DNA from: a virus
Lineage: Duplodnaviria > Caudoviricetes
Virus record (IMG/VR): IMGVR_UViG_3300021560_000062
Coordinates: 1 to 26,561 of that record
Reading direction: 5' to 3' (one strand)
Length of the DNA: 26,561 nucleotides
Both the position numbers and the translations under genes were made by a program. Positions 5,285 to 19,592 of the stretch are shown here, in pieces (positions within the stretch are counted from its first letter, which is position 1; each line of letters starts with the position of its first letter). Under the pieces are notes generated by a model. It saw nothing but the letters and a program-made list of their open reading frames with translations, ran no database searches and was not told the DNA's origin.

Positions 5285-5550
5285 TTACCTGGGATTGCTG
5301 CGAGACCTGTATCGGCTGGAGCCGCAAGACGGAGTACACTGGGACGTGCAATCAGGACAATTCCCTGGCGTGCGGCACGACGACCGATTCCCGGTTCCGC
5401 TGCCCCGCCTATCAGCGAGGAGGCCGTCATGGCGAGAGGAAAGATGGCGAAGGTAATGCACGAGTACAAGGAAAAGAAGCTGCACTCGGGCTCGAAGAAG
5501 GGGCCGCCGGTGAAGTCCCGCAAGCAGGCCATCGCGATCGGCCTGTCTGA
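5281..5550 (+). CDS. Small Cys-rich hypothetical protein
   Basis: GTGA overlap with the polymerase stop. MITWDCCETCIGW...GTC...AC...RCPAY. The 3' part overlaps the next gene. Confidence 0.55.
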   Translation: MITWDCCETCIGWSRKTEYTGTCNQDNSLACGTTTDSRFRCPAYQRGGRHGERKDGEGNARVQGKEAALGLEEGAAGEVPQAGHRDRPV

Positions 5551-5620
5551 AGCCCGCAAGGCCGGCGAGAAGGGTGCCGCCAGGCGGCGGGAAAAGAGAC
5601 TCGAGAACGAGCCTATGTGA
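5429..5620 (+). CDS. Small basic protein, DUF6496-like
   Basis: GAGGAGG SD. KVMHEYKEKKLHSGSKKGPPVKSRKQAIAIGLSEARKAG matches the KQAIAIxLSEAR family as I recall it. Confidence 0.8.
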   Translation: MARGKMAKVMHEYKEKKLHSGSKKGPPVKSRKQAIAIGLSEARKAGEKGAARRREKRLENEPM

Positions 5621-6024
5621 TGAAAAAGTTACCAGAACGCTTTCAAAGCAAGATACTACCAGAACCCAATTCAGGGTGCTGGTTTTGGAACGGTGCTATT
5701 GATTCGCGCGGTTACGGAAGAATTTCAGTAGCCGGTAAAAATAAATTGGCGCACCGAGAAGTCTTTCTGCGGCTAAAAAGAAATTTAGCCGCAGAAGAAT
5801 GTCTAGATCATCTGTGTAGAATACGATGTTGTGTTAACCCTGAACACTTGGAACCTGTAACTTTGGCAGAAAATATACGTAGAGGTAATCACAAGTACAA
5901 CAAACTAAAAACTCATTGCAAGTATGGGCATGAGTTTAACATTGAAAACATTCGTTTTTATAAAACTGAACGGGCGTGCCGAGAGTGTAACAGGATACGC
6001 ATGCGTAGGAGGAGACAAACGTGA
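5617..6024 (+). CDS. HNH homing-endonuclease-like protein (HNH_3 plus C-terminal Cys/His domain)
   Basis: GCWFWNGA...GYG...AHR...LDHLCRIRCCVNPEHLEPVTLAEN and KTHCKYGH...CREC. The DNA is markedly AT-rich. Confidence 0.9.
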   Translation: MMKKLPERFQSKILPEPNSGCWFWNGAIDSRGYGRISVAGKNKLAHREVFLRLKRNLAAEECLDHLCRIRCCVNPEHLEPVTLAENIRRGNHKYNKLKTHCKYGHEFNIENIRFYKTERACRECNRIRMRRRRQT

Positions 6025-7378: not shown

Positions 7379-7990
7379 GTGTCTAGTCGATCAAAATACG
7401 TGCCGGTTTGGCCCTCCTTAGCTAACCGCACATTAAAAACTGGTGTATTATGCGCTCCCTACAGCGAGCGCGGCAACGACCTGTACGAAACACCACCGGT
7501 CGCCCTGGAGGCTCTCCTGAAAGAAATAAAACTCCCCTATTACGTTTGGGAACCAGCTTGTGGCCATGGCAACTTGGTGAACGTGTTGGCCAAGGAACAC
7601 GCCGTTTATTTCTCTGATATAATGGATTACGGTATTCCAGGGCAACATGTTTTGGATTTTCTATCTATCAGCGTTCGCCAGTTTTCGGGAGCAATCGTAA
7701 CTAATCCGCCGTTCAAACATGCCGAAAAATTCGTTGAAAAGGCTTGTTCGATATGTCCAACCGTGATAATGTTGTTAAGGCTTGCGTTTCTGGAGTCCGA
7801 GCGTCGTTGCCCAATCTTGGATAACGGCACGCTGGCCGACGTCTACGTGTTTCGCAAGCGGCTGCCGATGATGCACCGCGCCGGCTGGGAAGGCCGCAAG
7901 GCCAACAGCGCCATGGCGTTCGCCTGGTTCATATGGAAGCGTGACCATCGGGGGCCGATCGTCCTTCACCGTTTGTCGTGGGAAAAATGA
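7379..7990 (+). CDS. Amino-type DNA methyltransferase (N6-adenine or N4-cytosine); start uncertain
   Basis: DLYETP, SAM-binding WEPACGHG, catalytic IVTNPPF, LLRLAFLES, FAWFIW. Confidence 0.85.
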   Translation: MSSRSKYVPVWPSLANRTLKTGVLCAPYSERGNDLYETPPVALEALLKEIKLPYYVWEPACGHGNLVNVLAKEHAVYFSDIMDYGIPGQHVLDFLSISVRQFSGAIVTNPPFKHAEKFVEKACSICPTVIMLLRLAFLESERRCPILDNGTLADVYVFRKRLPMMHRAGWEGRKANSAMAFAWFIWKRDHRGPIVLHRLSWEK

Positions 7991-8031
7991 CCCAGCTGTT
8001 CCACTCCCCACGGCTACATGGCAAGGAAACG

Positions 8032-8649
8032 ATGACAATAGCGGCGCTCTATGTCGAGACGGATGGTTGCTACTACAATCTTCCCGGCATCGACCCGTGG
8101 GATATCCGCCGGGACGCACGCCTGTATGCTGGACCTTACCCCGTGGTCGCGCATCCGCCCTGCCAGCGGTGGGGACGTTTCTGGCACGGCAGCACGGCCA
8201 GGCCGCACCAGTATCGCCTGGGCGACGATGACGGCTGCTTTGCCGCCGCGCTCCAGGCGGTGCGACAATGGGGCGGTGTGCTGGAGCACGTTGCCGACAG
8301 TCATGCCTGGAACCATTTTAGACTCGCGCGCCCGCCACGTGGGGCCGGCTGGATCGCGGCCGACGATGAGGGGGGATTTACCTGCTACATCGAGCAGGGA
8401 CACTATGGCCACATGGCGCGCAAGGGAACATGGCTTTACGTCAATAGAACCTTGCTGCCGGAGCTGCAATGGGAACGTTTGCCGCAACGGTTATCGCCGA
8501 TTGCACTTGACAGGTACGGTTACGAGAAAGCGCGTCGAATTGGCATCGTGGCCATGGTAGGGGGGAAACGCAAGACTGAGATACGGAACGCCACGCCGCT
8601 GCCGTTTCGGGATTTGTTAATTGCGATGGCGCGGAGCGTTGAAAGATGA
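8032..8649 (+). CDS. Divergent C5-cytosine methyltransferase-like protein
   Basis: AAGGA SD before ATG8032. IAALY...VVAHPPCQ (motif IV-like), VLEH (motif VI-like), Q.HYGH..RK.TWLY (motif VIII-like), RNATP.PF (motif X-like). Confidence 0.6.
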   Translation: MTIAALYVETDGCYYNLPGIDPWDIRRDARLYAGPYPVVAHPPCQRWGRFWHGSTARPHQYRLGDDDGCFAAALQAVRQWGGVLEHVADSHAWNHFRLARPPRGAGWIAADDEGGFTCYIEQGHYGHMARKGTWLYVNRTLLPELQWERLPQRLSPIALDRYGYEKARRIGIVAMVGGKRKTEIRNATPLPFRDLLIAMARSVER

Positions 8650-11822: not shown

Positions 11823-12178
11823 AGACTTTTGCGCAGCGGCTGGAGCATTGTTGCGAGTATGGCAGTTTGACGACGGCCGATCTCGCGATATGGTTTCAGC
11901 GAGCATACCCCACGGTACGAACCTGGCGTTACGACGGGCGGCTGCCGTGGGGGCCGCCGGGCGAAGAAGTCATTCGCCGCCTCAAAATACTGGAGACAAA
12001 AATCGACGAAGGCGAGTGGTTTCCGGTGCCGATTCTACTGACGTGGCAACATAGACGGTCCTACATGGAAAAGGCCCGCAGCAATGCCATCCCCACTAAT
12101 CGCTCAAGCGTTGACCTTTCTTCTGCCCCGCGCCAAGTTCTACGTGGCCGTTACCGATATTCACGGTCAAAAGTCTAA
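11819..12178 (+). CDS. HTH-like DNA-binding protein
   Basis: LTTADLAIWFQRAYPTVRTWRYDGRLP is an HTH-like pattern. ATGA overlap upstream; the 3' end overlaps the primase by 95 nt. Confidence 0.7.
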   Translation: MKTFAQRLEHCCEYGSLTTADLAIWFQRAYPTVRTWRYDGRLPWGPPGEEVIRRLKILETKIDEGEWFPVPILLTWQHRRSYMEKARSNAIPTNRSSVDLSSAPRQVLRGRYRYSRSKV

Positions 12179-14972
12179 CCGTTTCTTCGAGTCAATCGAA
12201 GACCTGGCTGCTTATATCGGCGAGCAGGACCGGCTAGGGCATACCGTCTACCACGCATGCGCCACCTTCAAGCTGCCCCAGGGCAACCGCCCTGGGGTGC
12301 GCGACCTGGGGCGGTCGCAAGCCAACGTCGCCTTCCTCCGCAGCCTGTTCGCTGACATCGACGTCGGTCCCAACAAGCCGTACCAGGAAGCAGCCGACGC
12401 CCTGATGGCGCTCGATGCGTTCTGCGCGGCCGCGGGCATGCCGCCGCCGACGATCGTCTCGTCCGGCCGGGGCTTCCACGCCTACTGGGTGCTTGAGGAC
12501 GACCTGACGCTGAACGAGTGGCAGCCGTATGCGCGTGGTCTCAAGGCGCTGTGCTACAAGGCCGGACTGAAGATCGACCCGGCGAGGACCGCCGACGGCA
12601 GCTCCATCCTGCGCACGCCGGGGACGACATGGCGCAAGGAAGACCCGCCCCGGCCGGTGAGATTCATCCAGCAAGAAGGACCGTACGATGTCCAAGATTT
12701 TGAATTTCTCAAAGCCGTCGAGCCCCGACGACCCCATGATGGTAGAGTGGCTGGCGTACATCGAGGCCCGCAACCGGCGTACCTCGCCGGAAGAAGTGAT
12801 GGACTTGCTGGAGCAGCAGCTAGACTTGCATATCCAAATAATAGAAGCGGCGAGCGAATTGCTGACGCGTGTCCGCAAATGGCGAAACTGCGAGCAACAG
12901 GCGGCAATGTTAGCGAGCCTCATTGGCACCACTGTCTCGGAGTGCTCGCATTTTGCCAGGATGGTGAGCGCCTGGGGCATGAATGGTCCTCCCGCGAGTA
13001 TGACACTTACACAGAAGAAGAAACCCAGGGGCGGCTCGACCGCTGGAAAGACTTCGGCCCGCCGTACTGCCAAACCTTCCACGACGTGGTCGATTCGACC
13101 ACTTGCGAAAACTGCCCCCACTGGGGAACAATCACCACCCCGATCGTCCTCGGGCAAGACGACGGACGACCCGAGCCCGCCCCCGCCGAAATCGGCGGCG
13201 TGACCATCCCGCCGCTGCCGAAGGATTTTGCGATCAACGGCAGCGGGCTGGTGCTCAAGGCAGCCAATAACCACACAGATGTTGACCTGGTTATTTCCAA
13301 GCATCCCATCTTTCTCGAAACCGTACACCGCGGCGAGATCAAGGGCGATCACACCCTGTCGCTCAAGCACGGGCTGCCGCACCGCGGGTGGGAGAACATC
13401 TTCGTCCCCGCCAGCACCCTGTTCGGCAGCGGCGGGATCGCGTTCCTGTCCGACAAGGGCATCACGATCCACGATACTCAACATTTCCTGCGCTTCGTGC
13501 GACACTCCATCGATATGTACCATGACCAGCAGGCGACCGTCGTGCGCGCCGAGCAGTTCGGTTGGAAGGAGGACGACAAGGCGTTCCTGTTCGGCCTCAA
13601 CCTGTACCGCGCCAACGAGGTTGTCGTCCCGGCGGCCGGTGACGACGAGATCGTGTGGCGGTCGAAACACGTCGGGCTGGCCAAAGGTGGATCGCTTCAC
13701 CGCTGGAAAGAGCTTGCTAACAACCTTTTCGCTGGTGGCTGCGAAGGTCAGTCGCTGGCCCTGCTGGCGAGTTTCGCCGCCCCCCTCCTGCGTTTTCTCT
13801 CCGTCGATGAAGGGGGTGCGATTCTCTCCCTTGTCACGCGTGCGAGCGGCAAGGGGAAGTCAACGGCTCTGGCCGGCGCTTGCTCCGTATGGGGCGATCG
13901 TGACGGCCTCGGTTTGACGCGAAGGGATACCGGGAACACCAAGGGTCTCACATTGGGTGCACTGGGCAACCTCCCCGTCGTCTACGACGAGATTGAGACG
14001 AAAGACCCTCAAGTCGCCCGCGATTTCGTTCAGACGTTCACCGAAGGCCGCGACAAGATGCGCGCCACCAGGAGCGGCGAGATCAAGCACACCGAGAACC
14101 GCTGGCAGACGCTGCTGATATCCGGCTCCAACAGCAGCCTGCTCGACACCCTGTCGTCCGATGGCGCCCAGGCGCCGGCCACCCGCATTATCGAGATGAG
14201 CTGCGATCTCCCCAAGGGGCTGCAGCATCACCTGGGCGACAAGCTGAAGAATGAGCTGCTAAAAAATTACGGCTACGCCGGGGACGCCTACCTGCGCTAC
14301 CTGATGAACAACATGGACTGGGTCAAGATGGCGCTGGAGCAGGCGGCCGATGCTGCCTGGAAGAAGACCAATTACCCGTCCGAGTGCCGCTTCTGGATCA
14401 GGACGGTAGCGGCGATCCAGGTGGCCGGCCACATCGTCAAGGGGCTGGGGCTGCTGGAATTTTCCCTCGATCGCCTGATGAGCTACCTGTTCCAGCGGCT
14501 CGACATGCAGCGCCCTGCCCACCTGATCGCCGCCATGGACGGCGACGCCTGGGCGATCGACGCCCTCGGGCAGTTCATGCAGGAGCATCACAGCGGCACC
14601 ATGGCGGTGCAGCACCGGTTCCGCATGGGGCGCAAGGAGTTCGTCCATCTGCGGCCGCGGGACCCGCTGGTGATCCGTTACGAGACGGAGGAGAACCGCT
14701 ACCTGATTGCGATGACGGCGCTGCGCAAATGGCTGGTCAAGCAGCAGCTGCCGTGGAACGAATTTTTTATGTACCTCAAAACCAAGGGCGTGGCGGTCGG
14801 CATCACCAATTGCACGCTGGGCGCCGGCACCGAGTACCCGTCGGTGCGCGTGCCCGTGCTGGAGGTTTGCTCCAATCACAGCCTCTGCATCGGGATGGAG
14901 CCGCAGATGGACCAGGACAAGGTGGTGCGGCTGGTCGATGGACGCGAGGCCCTGTTCAGGAAGGCTAATTGA
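12084..14972 (+). CDS. Primase-helicase: RepB/AEP-like primase, Cys-rich PriCT-like region and DUF927 P-loop domain
   Basis: FADID and SSGRGFHAYW primase motifs, CPQM...C...CENCPH cluster, FGW, Walker A SGKGKST, Walker B VVYDE. Confidence 0.9.
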   Translation: MPSPLIAQALTFLLPRAKFYVAVTDIHGQKSNRFFESIEDLAAYIGEQDRLGHTVYHACATFKLPQGNRPGVRDLGRSQANVAFLRSLFADIDVGPNKPYQEAADALMALDAFCAAAGMPPPTIVSSGRGFHAYWVLEDDLTLNEWQPYARGLKALCYKAGLKIDPARTADGSSILRTPGTTWRKEDPPRPVRFIQQEGPYDVQDFEFLKAVEPRRPHDGRVAGVHRGPQPAYLAGRSDGLAGAAARLAYPNNRSGERIADACPQMAKLRATGGNVSEPHWHHCLGVLAFCQDGERLGHEWSSREYDTYTEEETQGRLDRWKDFGPPYCQTFHDVVDSTTCENCPHWGTITTPIVLGQDDGRPEPAPAEIGGVTIPPLPKDFAINGSGLVLKAANNHTDVDLVISKHPIFLETVHRGEIKGDHTLSLKHGLPHRGWENIFVPASTLFGSGGIAFLSDKGITIHDTQHFLRFVRHSIDMYHDQQATVVRAEQFGWKEDDKAFLFGLNLYRANEVVVPAAGDDEIVWRSKHVGLAKGGSLHRWKELANNLFAGGCEGQSLALLASFAAPLLRFLSVDEGGAILSLVTRASGKGKSTALAGACSVWGDRDGLGLTRRDTGNTKGLTLGALGNLPVVYDEIETKDPQVARDFVQTFTEGRDKMRATRSGEIKHTENRWQTLLISGSNSSLLDTLSSDGAQAPATRIIEMSCDLPKGLQHHLGDKLKNELLKNYGYAGDAYLRYLMNNMDWVKMALEQAADAAWKKTNYPSECRFWIRTVAAIQVAGHIVKGLGLLEFSLDRLMSYLFQRLDMQRPAHLIAAMDGDAWAIDALGQFMQEHHSGTMAVQHRFRMGRKEFVHLRPRDPLVIRYETEENRYLIAMTALRKWLVKQQLPWNEFFMYLKTKGVAVGITNCTLGAGTEYPSVRVPVLEVCSNHSLCIGMEPQMDQDKVVRLVDGREALFRKAN
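12688..13203 (+). CDS. Candidate overprinted helical protein nested in the +1 frame of the primase
   Basis: AAGGA (12676-12680) 7 nt before ATG12688. Primase third positions become A/T-rich from that ATG to about 13020. Amphipathic helical sequence. Confidence 0.5.
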   Translation: MSKILNFSKPSSPDDPMMVEWLAYIEARNRRTSPEEVMDLLEQQLDLHIQIIEAASELLTRVRKWRNCEQQAAMLASLIGTTVSECSHFARMVSAWGMNGPPASMTLTQKKKPRGGSTAGKTSARRTAKPSTTWSIRPLAKTAPTGEQSPPRSSSGKTTDDPSPPPPKSAA

Positions 14973-15660
14973 GCGGCGGCGGGATACGCTTCTTCTCCTC
15001 CTCCGCGATCAGCTTCAGCAGCTCAGACAGGTTGTCGCTCTCCTGCTTGCGCAATTGATTTTCATCCACGCGGAGCTGCGAGCCGATGAACAGTTGCGCA
15101 GCGATCAGGTGGGCGCGCATGACCGATGCAAAATTATTTTTATCGGGATCGAGCGGGATCAGCAGGATGGCGCGCGCCTTGGCGATCGATAAACGCGTGC
15201 CTTCCCTCAGTGCATCTGCGAGTAATTCAGATTCGTCGCATAGCCGTGACTCTGCAGTTGCGGCAGCTGTTTCGCCAGCCGTCTCCCAATATCGGTTCGA
15301 TACATTGGGGAGTTGGGCACTATCAAGCGCCCCATACGGCGGTAGCACGTCAACGCGGCGTCCTGCACGGTCGGCCCGGTCGCCGTCATCACCAGCACGT
15401 AGTCCCCTGCCGTCACGATCATCGGCCCCTGCATGATCGCCTGGCCGTTCTTCTGCGGCACGTCCTCGCCCATCATCATCTCGCACGGGTGGATGTGCTT
15501 CCACATGCTGGGACGGGCGTTGTAGATAGGAATCCCCGCCACTTCCTTTTTTGTCAAATGGGAATACGGATAGTCGGGGATCGCCAGGACCACCCCCAGG
15601 CTCACTAAATCGGGCACAAAGACGCGGGCGTCCCGGCCCTTTGCCAAATCCTGTAGCCAT
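14965..15660 (-). CDS. Hypothetical protein overlapping the ATP-grasp gene in the -1 frame (own start at 15660 or reached by frameshift)
   Basis: The non-overlapped part (15206-14965) encodes a convincing helical domain. GAGGGAG lies 10 nt before ATG15660. An A_AAA_AAG site lies at 15552-15546. Confidence 0.6.
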   Translation of the reverse strand: MATGFGKGPGRPRLCARFSEPGGGPGDPRLSVFPFDKKGSGGDSYLQRPSQHVEAHPPVRDDDGRGRAAEERPGDHAGADDRDGRGLRAGDDGDRADRAGRRVDVLPPYGALDSAQLPNVSNRYWETAGETAAATAESRLCDESELLADALREGTRLSIAKARAILLIPLDPDKNNFASVMRAHLIAAQLFIGSQLRVDENQLRKQESDNLSELLKLIAEEEKKRIPPPLN

Positions 15661-16538
15661 TCTACGCAGTCTCCCTCGTGCACCGGCTGCTGTATGTTGA
15701 ACGTCGGCCAGCCGGGACGCATGGTGAACTCAAGCGGCCAGGGCGTCCCCTTCTCGTCGATGATGGTGTTGACGTCGATATATCCCACATAGGCCAGCTT
15801 ATCCAGCGCATCCGTCAGCGGGACCAGCAGCTTGCGGGCAAGTTTTGAATCCGGGACGTAGCGCAGCACCGTGCCCTGCTCGCCGGTCGCCATCCCGAGA
15901 TCGTCGTTCATCAGCTTCTTGAACTCGAAATTCTCGCACCAGCCCTCGTTCCAGCCCCCTGGCCCGAACCAGCCGCCGATCGCCATCTCGATCCCCGGCT
16001 TGAACTCCTGCAGGATGAACGGCGTCTTCAGCTTGCCGATCTTCTTCCATCGTTGCAGCATGTAGACCATGTCTTCCGGTGAATCCGAGCAGTACGACAA
16101 TGCCTTGTCGGCATCCCCCGATGGCTTGCTGACGAACCGCTGGTCCGTTTTCTTGACATGCGCAATGGCGGCATCGTAGTCCGCGAACTCCCTCGACGGG
16201 ATGACGGCAATGCCGTGCTTGCGCAGCACCTGCTGTCCCTCGGTGCGATCAAGCTCCCACTGTGCCGACTCCTGCGAGGCCGAGATCACGGCGGCCTTCG
16301 GGTACTCCGCGCGGAAGGCGTCGAGGTTGACCAGGTAGAACGTGTTGTCAGTGTTGAAGATCAGGTCGGCCCAGCGCAGCCACGGCTTGAAATCATCCAC
16401 CACGGTGACGAGGCCCTTGCCAATCAGGGCGTTCTTGGGAATCGGCCGCTTGAATAATTTAACCTCGTGCCCGTGGGCCTGCGCCCGCATGGCGAAGTCG
16501 AGGCCGTTGCCGGCGGGATCAATCACCAGGACGCGCAT
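15207..16538 (-). CDS. PurD/GARS-like ATP-grasp ligase
   Basis: MRVLVID Rossmann start, ELDR, VSKP.G, ILQEF..GIE, FEFKKLMNDDLGMATGEQG (compare PurD DHKR..GD.GPNTGGMG), GYIDVN, PLEFTMRPGWP (compare LEFNxRFGDP). Confidence 0.9.
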   Translation of the reverse strand: MRVLVIDPAGNGLDFAMRAQAHGHEVKLFKRPIPKNALIGKGLVTVVDDFKPWLRWADLIFNTDNTFYLVNLDAFRAEYPKAAVISASQESAQWELDRTEGQQVLRKHGIAVIPSREFADYDAAIAHVKKTDQRFVSKPSGDADKALSYCSDSPEDMVYMLQRWKKIGKLKTPFILQEFKPGIEMAIGGWFGPGGWNEGWCENFEFKKLMNDDLGMATGEQGTVLRYVPDSKLARKLLVPLTDALDKLAYVGYIDVNTIIDEKGTPWPLEFTMRPGWPTFNIQQPVHEGDCVEWLQDLAKGRDARVFVPDLVSLGVVLAIPDYPYSHLTKKEVAGIPIYNARPSMWKHIHPCEMMMGEDVPQKNGQAIMQGPMIVTAGDYVLVMTATGPTVQDAALTCYRRMGRLIVPNSPMYRTDIGRRLAKQLPQLQSHGYATNLNYSQMH

Positions 16539-16683
16539 CTTTGTTTTCTGCTGTCGGGACAGGCTCCTGCTCCTCGTCCCGGCGCGCCAGCAAGGCCGGA
16601 TGCCCCAGCGCAGGATGAATCAGAGCCGGCATCCCGTAAGGCCAGCGTCGCAATGGCTTATTCGCTGGAGGCTGCTGCGTCAT
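16519..16683 (-). CDS. 54-aa Pro-rich peptide between the ejection protein and the ATP-grasp gene
   Basis: Manual translation: MTQQPPANKPLRRWPYGMPALIHPALGHPALLARRDEEQEPVPTAENKDARPGD. ATGA overlap with the upstream stop; it ends inside the ATP-grasp start. Confidence 0.5.
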   Translation of the reverse strand: MTQQPPANKPLRRWPYGMPALIHPALGHPALLARRDEEQEPVPTAENKDARPGD

Positions 16684-19592
16684 TTGTACCCGCTAAACTC
16701 CCGCTGCTGACGTTCTTTGATTTCTTCCAGCTTGCGTTTGAACAAAACCATGTCCTCGCTAACGTCCTCACCACGCTGTTGCTTCTGCGCGATGGCGTGC
16801 CGCTGCGCCGATATCCACTTTTTCATCTCGATGCTGCCCATGCCCTTGGCGGTGCCCTCCGGGTCTTGCAGGGACGATGGCGCTGGCCGGATGCCGGCGG
16901 CAGCCTCCAGCGGCTCGATCGCAGACCCTATTTTCTCCCCTGACAAAATGGCCTTGACGGATATCGGCACCATGGAGCCGCCGACGTGGTTGAGGTAGTC
17001 GCCGAACCATTCCGGCACGGTGGCACCGGGGCGGATGAATGGGTCGCTGCGCCAGTCGCTGCCGCCGTGTCCCATCACGGCGCCCAGCGTCTCGCCGAGC
17101 AGGCGCGGGCCGGTCGCGATCTTGTTGATGGCTTCCTGCTTGGCATCGTTGTACCAGCCGAACACGTCTTTCTGGTATCCCGGCAGCATCGCCCGTTCCG
17201 GCACTTCGCCCTTGCCGCCGAAGCCGGGAGCCACGCCGCCGGTGCGCGGCGCCATCAAGTCCTCGATGCTCTCCGGCCCCTTGCCGGTTTTAAGGTATTG
17301 ATAGGCCGCGCTGAGCGCCGCCACGCCGATCGGGAACGCCGTCACGTAGGCCACCCGTGGGTCGTAGTCCTTGCTGGCGATCGACAGCCGGGACGGATCG
17401 CGCAGGCCCGCCACCACCCCACCGCCAATCTCCTTGATCGTTCCCAGGTTCCACGAGTAGGAGCGTAACCCGAGCGTTGCTGCCTGCCGGCCGAACGCGT
17501 TCCAAAATTGATTGTCGTGCACCATCTCGCCGAAACGGTTGTCGATGGAGTCCCAAATCTTGCGCGCCATGGCCACCTGCTCCTGGTGGGTGGCGCCTGG
17601 ATTGGCGTCGATCCATTCCTTCATGGTGTCGTAAAAGGCGCCGTTCTTCAGCTTGGGGATATATTTCACGAACAGCGGGAAGGCGACCGTCTCCATCGTG
17701 CGCCCCACCAGCTTGGCGCTCTCGACCGCCCCTTGCCCAACCTTCCCGGCTGCTGACGGGCGGGCCAGCACGCGCTGCTTGGCTGCTTCCGCCTCCAGCC
17801 TGAGCGCGCCGCGCCGGAACGATGTCCAGAAATTCCCCATTGCGGACATCTCGTAGTCCTTGGCGTGCTCCTTTCCGGTCATGCGCGCACCGGCCTCGGT
17901 GGCAAGGTCCACGATCTTGCGCATGTCGGGAGTGCCCTGGCTGCGCCCGAGATAAACCTGCTCAACCTTGTGCCCGGTGATCGGCCTGGTGATCGGGGCC
18001 AGCGGAGCCGTCACGAGCGACCCGACCGCCTTGAGCGGCTTGCCGCCAGCGATCTGTGACACGCCTTTAGCCAGGTCGGACAAAAATGCTTCGTTGGCCA
18101 TGGTGAAAGCGTGGAAACCGGACAAGCCCAGCTCAAGCGCCGTGATGGCGTTGGAAGATCGCAAGGCGGCGTCGTAGATGTTGCCGGCGGTGTCGAAGTC
18201 GTGGACACCGCGCGATATGTGGTTGTTGTAGACCCGCGCCCAGTCGGCCGGCGCGAATGCCTGCGAGCCGTCGGGGCGGCGGGCACCGCGACCCTCCAGC
18301 GCCACGTAGCCGTCCGGCACCTTGAAGGCTCCCGGCAGGCCGGACGCGCCCATCACCCTCGGCTTGACGTACTGCACCGTGCCCTGCGCGACGCCCGTCT
18401 CCAGTGCCTCGGTCGAAGCGATGAACTGGTCCATGCTGCGCACGTAGCGCAGCGCCCCCTCCAGCGGGTTGGTGGTCAGAGGAACCAGGCCATTGGCGAT
18501 GCCGTCGGCAATCGTAGGGATGGTCCGGCCCTTCAGGCTCGCCCCCGAGCCCTGCTTGCTGACGCCCCCGCCGCCCGTATAGTTGTATGCGAACTGCTTG
18601 GCCTTGTTGGGGTCCTGCCAGAAGTGCGGGAAGTAGTCCGCGATGAAATGCGCCTGAGCGAACCTGGGCATCGATTGCAATTTGTTCTTGCGCTTCTCGA
18701 ACTCGCCCTTGAGCGTATTGGCCAGCGCACGCAGTTGCGGCGTGTTGCCGCCGCCCATGAGCGCCCCGCCGCCTTCCACGTAGTCGAGAAAAGCAATCTG
18801 ATCCTGGCGCGACAACTGGTTGACCAGATGATGCCAGGGTTCCACGGCGGCCTGTGTCATGGCCGTCTCGCGCGCCGCCGTGCCACTGGACTTGCGCAGC
18901 AACCCAGCGGCCTCCTGCGCGATCGGCGACACCGTTCCCGGCGACACTATCTTTTCGATCGGCCGCAGCAGCGTACGGATTTCCTTTCCGAAGCCGACAC
19001 CGGGCAACACCAATTCGGCGCCGGTGCGCAGCGACTCCTCCGGGAGCCCGGTCGCCCTGCTGACCGGCTGGGAGAAAATTTCCTTGATCGGCGACGAGAT
19101 CGGCGACGTGGCATAATCGAACGCACCGCCCAGGGTGGTCAACGCGCCAGCCGCGCGGTCGCCGCCGCGAAACATCTCGACGCCGCGCTTCATCGTCTCC
19201 ATGCCCTCGCGGGCAATCTCCGGCTGATGGCGTTCCGCTTGCCGCAGGCCAGCGGCAGCCAGCCCGTAGGTGCCTCCAGCCGCGATGTCCATGTATTGGC
19301 GCATCAGCTGCGTCTGCTTGTCCTCGCCGGTTTCCTGCTCCATCCGCTGCGTCTCTTGCGGCGTGGCGTCCGGCTTGGCGTACTGCTGCTCCCACGGCAT
19401 GCCGGCAGCAGGCGGTCCAGGGGCAGGTGGGCCAGCTTGCGGTGCAGGCGTGGGCGCCGGCGCATATTGCTGCTCCCACGGCATGTTCCCCGCCGCCGGC
19501 GGGCCAGCGGGCGCCCCGAGCGTGCCGCGCGGGTAGACCTCGATCTTGAGCGGCTTGCCTGGTTCGTAGGGAATTTCCCACGGGTCGGGCAT
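16680..19592 (-). CDS. Large internal virion/DNA-ejection protein (970 aa)
   Basis: Third of three Ala/Gly-rich genes after the GNAT. N-terminal PWE repeats, a helical body and a C-terminal hydrophobic stretch. Function inferred from podovirus synteny. Confidence 0.7.
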   Translation of the reverse strand: MPDPWEIPYEPGKPLKIEVYPRGTLGAPAGPPAAGNMPWEQQYAPAPTPAPQAGPPAPGPPAAGMPWEQQYAKPDATPQETQRMEQETGEDKQTQLMRQYMDIAAGGTYGLAAAGLRQAERHQPEIAREGMETMKRGVEMFRGGDRAAGALTTLGGAFDYATSPISSPIKEIFSQPVSRATGLPEESLRTGAELVLPGVGFGKEIRTLLRPIEKIVSPGTVSPIAQEAAGLLRKSSGTAARETAMTQAAVEPWHHLVNQLSRQDQIAFLDYVEGGGALMGGGNTPQLRALANTLKGEFEKRKNKLQSMPRFAQAHFIADYFPHFWQDPNKAKQFAYNYTGGGGVSKQGSGASLKGRTIPTIADGIANGLVPLTTNPLEGALRYVRSMDQFIASTEALETGVAQGTVQYVKPRVMGASGLPGAFKVPDGYVALEGRGARRPDGSQAFAPADWARVYNNHISRGVHDFDTAGNIYDAALRSSNAITALELGLSGFHAFTMANEAFLSDLAKGVSQIAGGKPLKAVGSLVTAPLAPITRPITGHKVEQVYLGRSQGTPDMRKIVDLATEAGARMTGKEHAKDYEMSAMGNFWTSFRRGALRLEAEAAKQRVLARPSAAGKVGQGAVESAKLVGRTMETVAFPLFVKYIPKLKNGAFYDTMKEWIDANPGATHQEQVAMARKIWDSIDNRFGEMVHDNQFWNAFGRQAATLGLRSYSWNLGTIKEIGGGVVAGLRDPSRLSIASKDYDPRVAYVTAFPIGVAALSAAYQYLKTGKGPESIEDLMAPRTGGVAPGFGGKGEVPERAMLPGYQKDVFGWYNDAKQEAINKIATGPRLLGETLGAVMGHGGSDWRSDPFIRPGATVPEWFGDYLNHVGGSMVPISVKAILSGEKIGSAIEPLEAAAGIRPAPSSLQDPEGTAKGMGSIEMKKWISAQRHAIAQKQQRGEDVSEDMVLFKRKLEEIKERQQREFSGYK

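Follow-up and report, generated by a model that had tools for sequence, protein, structure and literature searches.

The 26.6-kb virus record IMGVR_UViG_3300021560_000062 (Caudoviricetes), whose full 26,561 nucleotides (nt) are called the window below, raises the question of whether one stretch of its minus strand encodes two proteins in two frames. The 3' part of a gene for a PurD/GARS-like ATP-grasp ligase is overlapped by an open reading frame (ORF) in the -1 frame, which runs on past the ligase stop and ends in a helical hairpin domain. The original prediction offered two explanations: a programmed -1 frameshift at an A_AAA_AAG heptamer within the ligase gene, or an overprinted gene with its own start at ATG15660, after GAGGGAG. 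Its coordinates for the ligase, the heptamer, the -1 ORF and the 454-nt overlap were all correct on re-check (Table 1), and the homologues strongly support the second explanation. Conservation of the frame, of its start and of its codon skew extends across the relatives and goes with the hairpin being present. Judging from these sequences, the stretch 15660-14965 is very probably a real, conserved overprinted gene, whose internal start would make a separate protein of 231 amino acids (aa). Ribosomes would start independently at ATG15660, with no need for a frameshift, and the product would consist of a predicted disordered leader followed by the helical hairpin.

Table 1. Features of the overlap between the ligase gene and the second frame, in window coordinates.
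Feature	Position	Strand	Remarks
PurD/GARS-like ATP-grasp ligase gene, 443 aa	15207..16538	-	final large gene in the late (virion) cluster; the overlap's older frame
Shine-Dalgarno-like GAGGGAG (ligase codons E-G-D)	15671..15677	-	10 nt before ATG15660; anti-Shine-Dalgarno duplex -7.8 kcal/mol
Start ATG	15658..15660	-	formed by ligase codons Glu293-Trp294 (GAA TGG)
Overprinted ORF, 231 aa, -1 frame of the ligase	14965..15660	-	shares 454 nt with the ligase
Overprinted leader, residues 1-143, Gly/Asp/Arg-rich	15232..15660	-	predicted disordered
A_AAA_AAG heptamer	15546..15552	-	ACA AAA AAG, ligase codons 329-331; not conserved, likely incidental
Helical hairpin core	14986..15231	-	predicted helices 144-166 and 177-225; its first residues fall within the ligase 3' end; candidate oligomerisation core of a small terminase
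DUF927 primase/helicase gene	12084..14972	+	convergent; shares its last 8 nt with the end of the overprinted ORF

Conservation of the second frame and its start

Ligase homologues were collected from 80 viral loci, of which two ended before the ligase stop and were dropped; the other 78 and the window were grouped at 85% identity into 48 clusters. A C-terminal hairpin domain profile, built from 24 loci of this set, located the domain in the -1 frame, spanning the ligase stop, in 38 of the 48 clusters. It was absent from eight, and two were cut by contig ends. The -1 frame was open from codon 295 to the ligase stop in 34 of the 38 hairpin-bearing clusters versus none of the eight without the domain (Fisher 1.9e-6, the clusters not being independent). 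Each gene's own codon use predicts 2.9 open frames in 38, and 5' windows of equal length in the same genes were open in just 2-3 of 38. Stops in the -1 frame fell from 3.3 per 100 codons in the 5' part to 0.14 in the overlap, with no drop in +1 stops, and in the eight clusters without the domain the -1 stop rate was not lowered (2.6 and 2.3 per 100 codons). A hold-out set was drawn from 82 metagenome and genome loci, with the window record excluded; 75 cover the region, and the 36 of these that are less than 85% identical to the first set gave 30 clusters. The hairpin domain was present in 26 of them, 24 with an open frame and 24 with the ATG; one cluster was truncated, and of the three without the domain two were closed and one was open.

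The ligase frame is the older one, as it aligns with cellular PurD right through the overlap, and in the distant phage ligase of L081 the -1 frame is closed and the hairpin gave no match. A separate oddity is L057, whose -1 frame meets no stop anywhere along the ligase and is open for 553 codons ahead of the ligase stop, possibly through extreme GC bias.

The start is conserved along with the frame. At codons 293-294 the hairpin-bearing clusters carry ATG in 30 cases, GTG in six, CTG in one and TTG in one, where just 32% of the 5' Glu and Gln codons end in A; without the hairpin domain ATG stands there in three of eight clusters. In many loci a -1 stop at codons 288-293 comes directly before the start ATG, and in the window the frame is open from 15729, after a stop at 15732-15730. 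A Shine-Dalgarno (SD)-like duplex of -5 kcal/mol or stronger lies ahead of the start in 27 of 40 overlap-type clusters, against a background of 16%. An NTG codon in the -1 frame can arise solely on ligase Trp or Cys codons, and residue 294 is Trp or Cys in 48/48 clusters. We infer that Trp294, behind a Gly-Asp of GGAG type, is the usual start because the N-terminal end of the hairpin already lies inside the ligase 3' end and an NTG there needs a Trp or Cys. The same restriction would force the leader to be long, and the codons between the start and the hairpin would then have been shaped into a soluble, acid-enriched leader. The window has a further GTG at Cys352, with a weak SD.

Composition was analysed in 36 clusters, which are the 38 minus two with much shorter overlaps. 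The share of G at fourfold sites of the ligase frame (G3) rises from 0.32 to 0.58 in the overlap, and does so in 36 of 36 clusters, while T at these sites goes down from 0.14 to 0.05. The -1 frame has 653 Asp and Glu residues where 395 were expected, an excess seen in all 36, and 127 aromatic and Cys residues where 278 were expected. The eight clusters without the overlap show little skew (Asp and Glu 93 vs 85). In 5/5 informative close pairs fourfold divergence was lower in the overlap than in the rest of the gene (rest vs overlap: 50/122 and 13/80; 42/134 and 10/82; 11/136 and 1/81; 11/129 and 2/77; 64/129 and 27/69). A selected basic N-terminus inside the overlap was also considered and found unsupported, with 142 Lys and Arg against 128 expected over the first 19 leader codons.

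Four observations weigh against an overprinted gene. The window by itself is unremarkable, its overlap staying open in 43% of synonymous resamples drawn from its own 5' codon usage (P 0.43). One hold-out cluster, L166, is open though it lacks the hairpin. SD-like strength is also found in four of the eight clusters without the overlap and is missed in 13 of the 40 with it. The sole informative pair without the overlap also diverges less in that region (70/129 vs 24/62).

The relatives also hold natural experiments in which the overlap is gone or rearranged. The eight clusters without it fall at six separate places among the overlap-type rows of a quick tree, whose root is uncertain, which suggests that the overlap may have been lost repeatedly. 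Of the four hairpin-bearing clusters whose frame is closed, three (L051, L055 and L064) have stops after codon 294 but a new SD and start 82, 59 and 67 codons before the ligase stop, respectively. In L007 the ATG lies five codons on, with a weak SD, and L180 has its own ATG at the ligase stop with the overlap closed. In L077 and L067 the -1 frame of the ligase is closed, and an Endonuclease_7 gene sits between this ligase and the old 3' end, which has been displaced. The ligase 3' part of L077 is just 56% like that of its sister L074, and its displaced old 3' end is 93% identical to L074; this displaced copy starts at the SD and still encodes a 245-aa ORF. In the displaced copy of L067 the leader is shortened and stops interrupt the ligase frame, with the SD, the start, the first ~15 codons and the hairpin intact. 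The endonuclease genes themselves (4301-4969 in L077 and 4225-4860 in L067, minus strand) resemble a homing-like cassette, apparently arriving with a replacement ligase 3' part and displacing the old one. Stand-alone hairpin forms of 100 aa exist in L016 and L085, and the long leader is therefore dispensable in some lineages; a search of the annotated phage collection with the L085 protein found nothing.

The hairpin protein and the small terminase question

AlphaFold2 predicted no helix of four residues or more in leader residues 1-140, where its per-residue confidence (pLDDT) was 40-54. The hairpin domain, modelled as a monomer, was predicted as helices at residues 9-32 and 43-91 of the domain with a mean pLDDT of 90, a generic arrangement. 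The hairpin family comprises 1,153 protein clusters at E <= 1e-3. Among the best 150 of these 1,153, 37 have an overprinted-type leader (28 of them are 215-260 aa long and start with MA, MV or MD) and 113 do not. Of the 113, 86 have at least 110 aa, with leaders that average 55 aa. The motif LxxLDxxxLP occurs in 11 of these 86, where 0.39 would be expected by shuffling, and a strict match occurs in six of 36 overprinted leaders; seven of the 86 begin with a MAGxPxxR-like start. Genomic-context searches for four putatively freed forms (P0131, P0034, P0096 and P0167) gave nothing usable, L212 being a spurious match. Two other hairpin homologues, P0015 and P0017, carry an N-terminal region of ~100 aa that looks folded by eye, possibly a winged helix, and have no notable match in Pfam, PHROG or NCBIfam.

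Searches by sequence and by fold gave the protein no consistent name. The 231-aa ORF or its core had no consistent family match in Pfam, PHROGs or NCBIfam, and the one significant-looking PHROG match (one of 37 proteins) was to a single-member PHROG of unknown function. PDB sequence searches with the hairpin protein found no match, Foldseek against PDB and BFVD found nothing at E <= 0.001, and the best VIA-align Z, 6.5, was a generic match to an unrelated pilin. In the language-model search (Atlas), the neighbours include the T5, Sf6, Phage_term_sma and Terminase_2 small-terminase families, the best being T5_Terminase_small at 0.91; a search with the L016 form gave unnamed clusters and, as a lead, DUF5681 at 0.89.

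From these neighbours and from the gene's distribution, it is about an even call that the hairpin protein is a small terminase subunit (TerS). Exactly one match to the hairpin gene was found in 22 of 25 near-complete records (27 of 31 overall), relocated cases included, and the large terminase gene (TerL) in 29 of 29 records. Genomes that have lost the overlap carry the hairpin gene at another place. The three near-complete records without the single match are G014, G015 and G027. G014 has a clear relative of the G002 match, a circular recovery as the sequence was in the profile; G015 has a weak hairpin match (E 0.001) fused to a HGGxSTG domain; and G027 ends inside the ligase. In G003, G015 and G019 the relocated hairpin gene lies 0.7-3 kb from the TerL start, divergent from it. 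Of the ORFs that lie on the TerL strand up to 1.5 kb upstream of it, one BLAST cluster extends over 26 loci and is mostly KTSC-like (three of three tested in Pfam), and no other cluster extends over more than three loci among the matches listed.

Two further observations concern neighbouring genes. Immediately upstream of TerL (L097-L125), a small gene with a KTSC domain is the only ORF that is widely shared. The HGGxSTG domain (NF041373), which we take to be linked to TerS, is fused to the weak hairpin homologue in G015 (L127 5985-6653, plus strand), and a gene with this domain comes directly after the hairpin gene in G003 (L085 11474-11274, minus strand).

Passages of PMC9611059 describe TerS proteins as a helix-turn-helix (HTH) at the N-terminus with a helical-hairpin core, hard to annotate, and place the TerS of E217 58 kb from its TerL, adjacency being usual and not universal. 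Like the TerS proteins treated there (P22 gp3, Sf6 gp1, T5, PaP3 and E217), the hairpin protein is small, single-copy in 22 of 25 near-complete records and predicted to have a helical-hairpin core, and like that of E217 it is encoded far from TerL in overlap-type genomes. It differs from them in having a 140-aa predicted disordered leader in place of a predicted N-terminal HTH, and in lacking a significant profile or fold match. The hairpin may oligomerise as a TerS-like ring serving TerL, with the leader where the HTH usually sits, a mechanism to which we give even chances.

Several results tell against a small terminase. Atlas shares just 117 of 256 features, and the tool warns that the family is probably wrong, with five of the ten top matches agreeing. 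In overlap-type genomes the hairpin gene is at the end of the late cluster, not beside TerL. No N-terminal HTH is predicted (residues 1-140 are without structure and there is no HTH family match), and Lys and Arg are not enriched in the first 19 leader codons. No TerS family was matched by the hairpin proteins scanned, 150 and 37 of them against Pfam and 100 and 37 against PHROGs. With hhalign the probability against T5-type TerS (T5 TerS and a 4-sequence T5-type alignment) was 0.4-3%, and the comparison with the putative TerS of Caulobacter phage Kuura was not significant. The fold searches (Foldseek against PDB and BFVD, and VIA-align) listed no TerS, which does not exclude the fold.

The strongest competing account accepts the overprinted gene and gives its protein another job, as a single-copy oligomeric factor such as an adaptor in replication or assembly, or a protein that partners the ligase. 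It draws on these TerS sequence and fold tests, all negative or inconclusive, and on the L038 group, in which a weak homologue sits between an HTH-like gene and a primase gene on the same strand as both. Set against it are the language-model neighbours, mostly TerS families, the lack of another shared TerS candidate within 1.5 kb upstream of TerL among the matches listed, and the three relocated genes near the TerL start. We put this account at somewhat less than an even chance.

Re-initiation and frameshifting as alternatives

A different account holds that translation yields the ~85-aa hairpin alone, through re-initiation close to the ligase stop or right at it, with the open -1 frame upstream a product of GC-rich codon bias. 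Gene calls lend it some colour: callers often report forms of 51-88 aa, and the window's own database entries have 81 and 51 aa. A near-stop ATG is present in five of 40 overlap-type clusters (TAATG in L011, for example), and the open frame of L166 and the stand-alone forms of L016 and L085 can be read the same way. Near-stop NTG starts of any kind, however, are found in ten of the 40 and come with an SD in none, and the other 30, including the window, have none at all; near-stop re-initiation was rejected for most loci on these counts. The window has no ATG, GTG or TTG in the -1 frame within 25 codons before or eight after the ligase stop. The mostly closed 5' windows and the codon skew specific to hairpin-bearing clusters also argue against codon bias, and the account is quite unlikely.

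The A_AAA_AAG heptamer is a known shift-prone sequence, familiar from the -1 frameshifting of dnaX and of insertion-sequence (IS) elements. A tandem slip in the window would yield a ligase of 524 aa with its C-terminal part replaced by the leader and hairpin; its junction would read HLTKK followed by GSGGDSY, and the transframe product would be marked by the peptide HLTKKGSGGDSY. In the homologues the heptamer is absent nearly everywhere, which is the first of two findings named in the original prediction as refuting it; the second, a non-overlapping start for the helical domain, does not hold for the overlap-type loci. At codons 329-331 it occurs in one of 48 clusters, the window itself, with A_AAA_AAA in one further cluster and ACG AGG AAG as the commonest spelling (10 of 48), and it occurs in 0 of 30 hold-out clusters. 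In-frame X_XXY_YYZ sites are at chance level, with five of 48 clusters having one in the overlap vs seven of 48 in the 5' 293 codons. Folding of the 70 nt downstream of the heptamer did not stand out from that of shuffled sequences (z -0.38; 62 of 200 shuffles did equally well; pseudoknots not searched). The likeness to dnaX and IS elements is thus the heptamer itself, in the window genome alone; the differences are that it is not conserved, that stimulators were not found and that the second frame has a conserved start of its own.

The reach of the frame points the same way. It is held open to codon 294, and a shift at codon 330 would not require the 36 most upstream codons of this stretch. 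A shift would also cut into the GARS_C-like region of the ligase (residues 314-420), and in L067 and L077 the second frame persists detached from the ligase 5' part. No ligase-hairpin fusion was found among the best 150 of 1,153 profile matches (longest 260 aa), and a search for longer hairpin proteins gave three matches of 236-244 aa with no ligase fusion, which is weak evidence. The window does carry the heptamer in frame, and low-level incidental slippage may occur in this one genome, but a programmed frameshift that makes the 524-aa ligase is very unlikely indeed.

Genome setting, known overlaps and meaning

The overprinted gene sits in a 26.6-kb record, and complete relatives span 40-46 kb. 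The plus strand of the window encodes DNA polymerase A, a SNF2 helicase and the DUF927 primase/helicase; the minus strand encodes tail-collar, acetyltransferase and large unnamed genes. The ligase has Pfam matches to GARS_A and GARS_C, both below cut-off, and scores 59.3 bits against TIGR00877, the PurD equivalog, whose curated cut-off of 288 it does not reach. It matches eight solved GARS sequences (best E 1e-11) over residues ~70-425, and so resembles PurD, the phosphoribosylamine-glycine ligase, in aligning with the solved enzymes; it differs in its ~24% identity, its score and its place among virion genes. These ligases make up an unnamed phage group without a PHROG, 50-70% identical over the 80 viral loci and located at the end of the virion genes, and a GNAT acetyltransferase gene (23757-23212) lies in the vicinity. 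The passages of PMC7824862 mention other phage ATP-grasp families, and the window's ligase group is absent from them. In the annotated phage collection the ligase's sole full-length phage-type relative is MW202796 (47%), and no cultured member of the phage group was found among annotated phages. Three short matches in bacterial bins are insufficient to assign a host. Literature searches, largely confined to papers outside subscription journals, listed nothing on this overlap or on the ligase group.

No promoter- or terminator-like site was found in 14700-16900. A 54-aa ORF at 16683-16519 (minus strand), with no Pfam match, overlaps the stop of a 970-aa gene (ATGA) and the ligase start, and L007 has at the equivalent position a 111-aa ORF with weak PHROG matches. 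Further along the minus strand, a 705-aa gene (21710-19593) contains three near-identical AEKHDVAVGER repeats and a Pro/Gly-rich stretch. On the plus strand, ORFs at 7379-8649 and 5429-6024 have methyltransferase-like motifs by eye (NPPF, HPPC) and no Pfam match, and the replication genes also include a DUF6496 gene and a weak HNH_3 gene.

Known examples of overprinting that extends a viral gene are the A and C extensions of phiX174 and the spacer/pre-S of hepatitis B virus, as described in the parts of PMC8227390 that deal with overprinted segments and their disorder. The likeness is that a new frame over an older gene extends an existing protein and that the new part is predicted to be disordered. 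Compared with the cases in those parts of PMC8227390, the differences are a tailed double-stranded DNA phage group of ~43 kb, a folded PurD-like domain as the older frame, an overlap of 150 codons, and an overlap that was apparently undone several times, by relocation and by endonuclease-driven displacement. A fuller scenario is tentative and on balance doubtful: a widespread uncultured podophage group may conceal its TerS in a second reading frame within an enzyme gene and have replaced the DNA-binding head with a leader that arose de novo through overprinting, the motifs MAGxPxxRA at the start of the leader and LxxLDxxxLP near its end having become functional and been carried out at each duplication or relocation.

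Small viral genomes supply the best-known long same-strand overlaps, and here one is found in tailed phages of ~43 kb, kept across ligases that are just 50-70% identical, in a protein that gene callers often truncate. With its repeated loss, start relocation and endonuclease displacement, the phage group offers natural experiments on the birth, constraint and freeing of an overprinted segment. If the hairpin protein is TerS, it would fill a gap in these genomes and would mean that a missing TerS can hide in an alternative frame and work without an HTH. If its leader was also born by overprinting, living genomes would make it possible to trace how part of a protein encoded by a core packaging gene was born and escaped.

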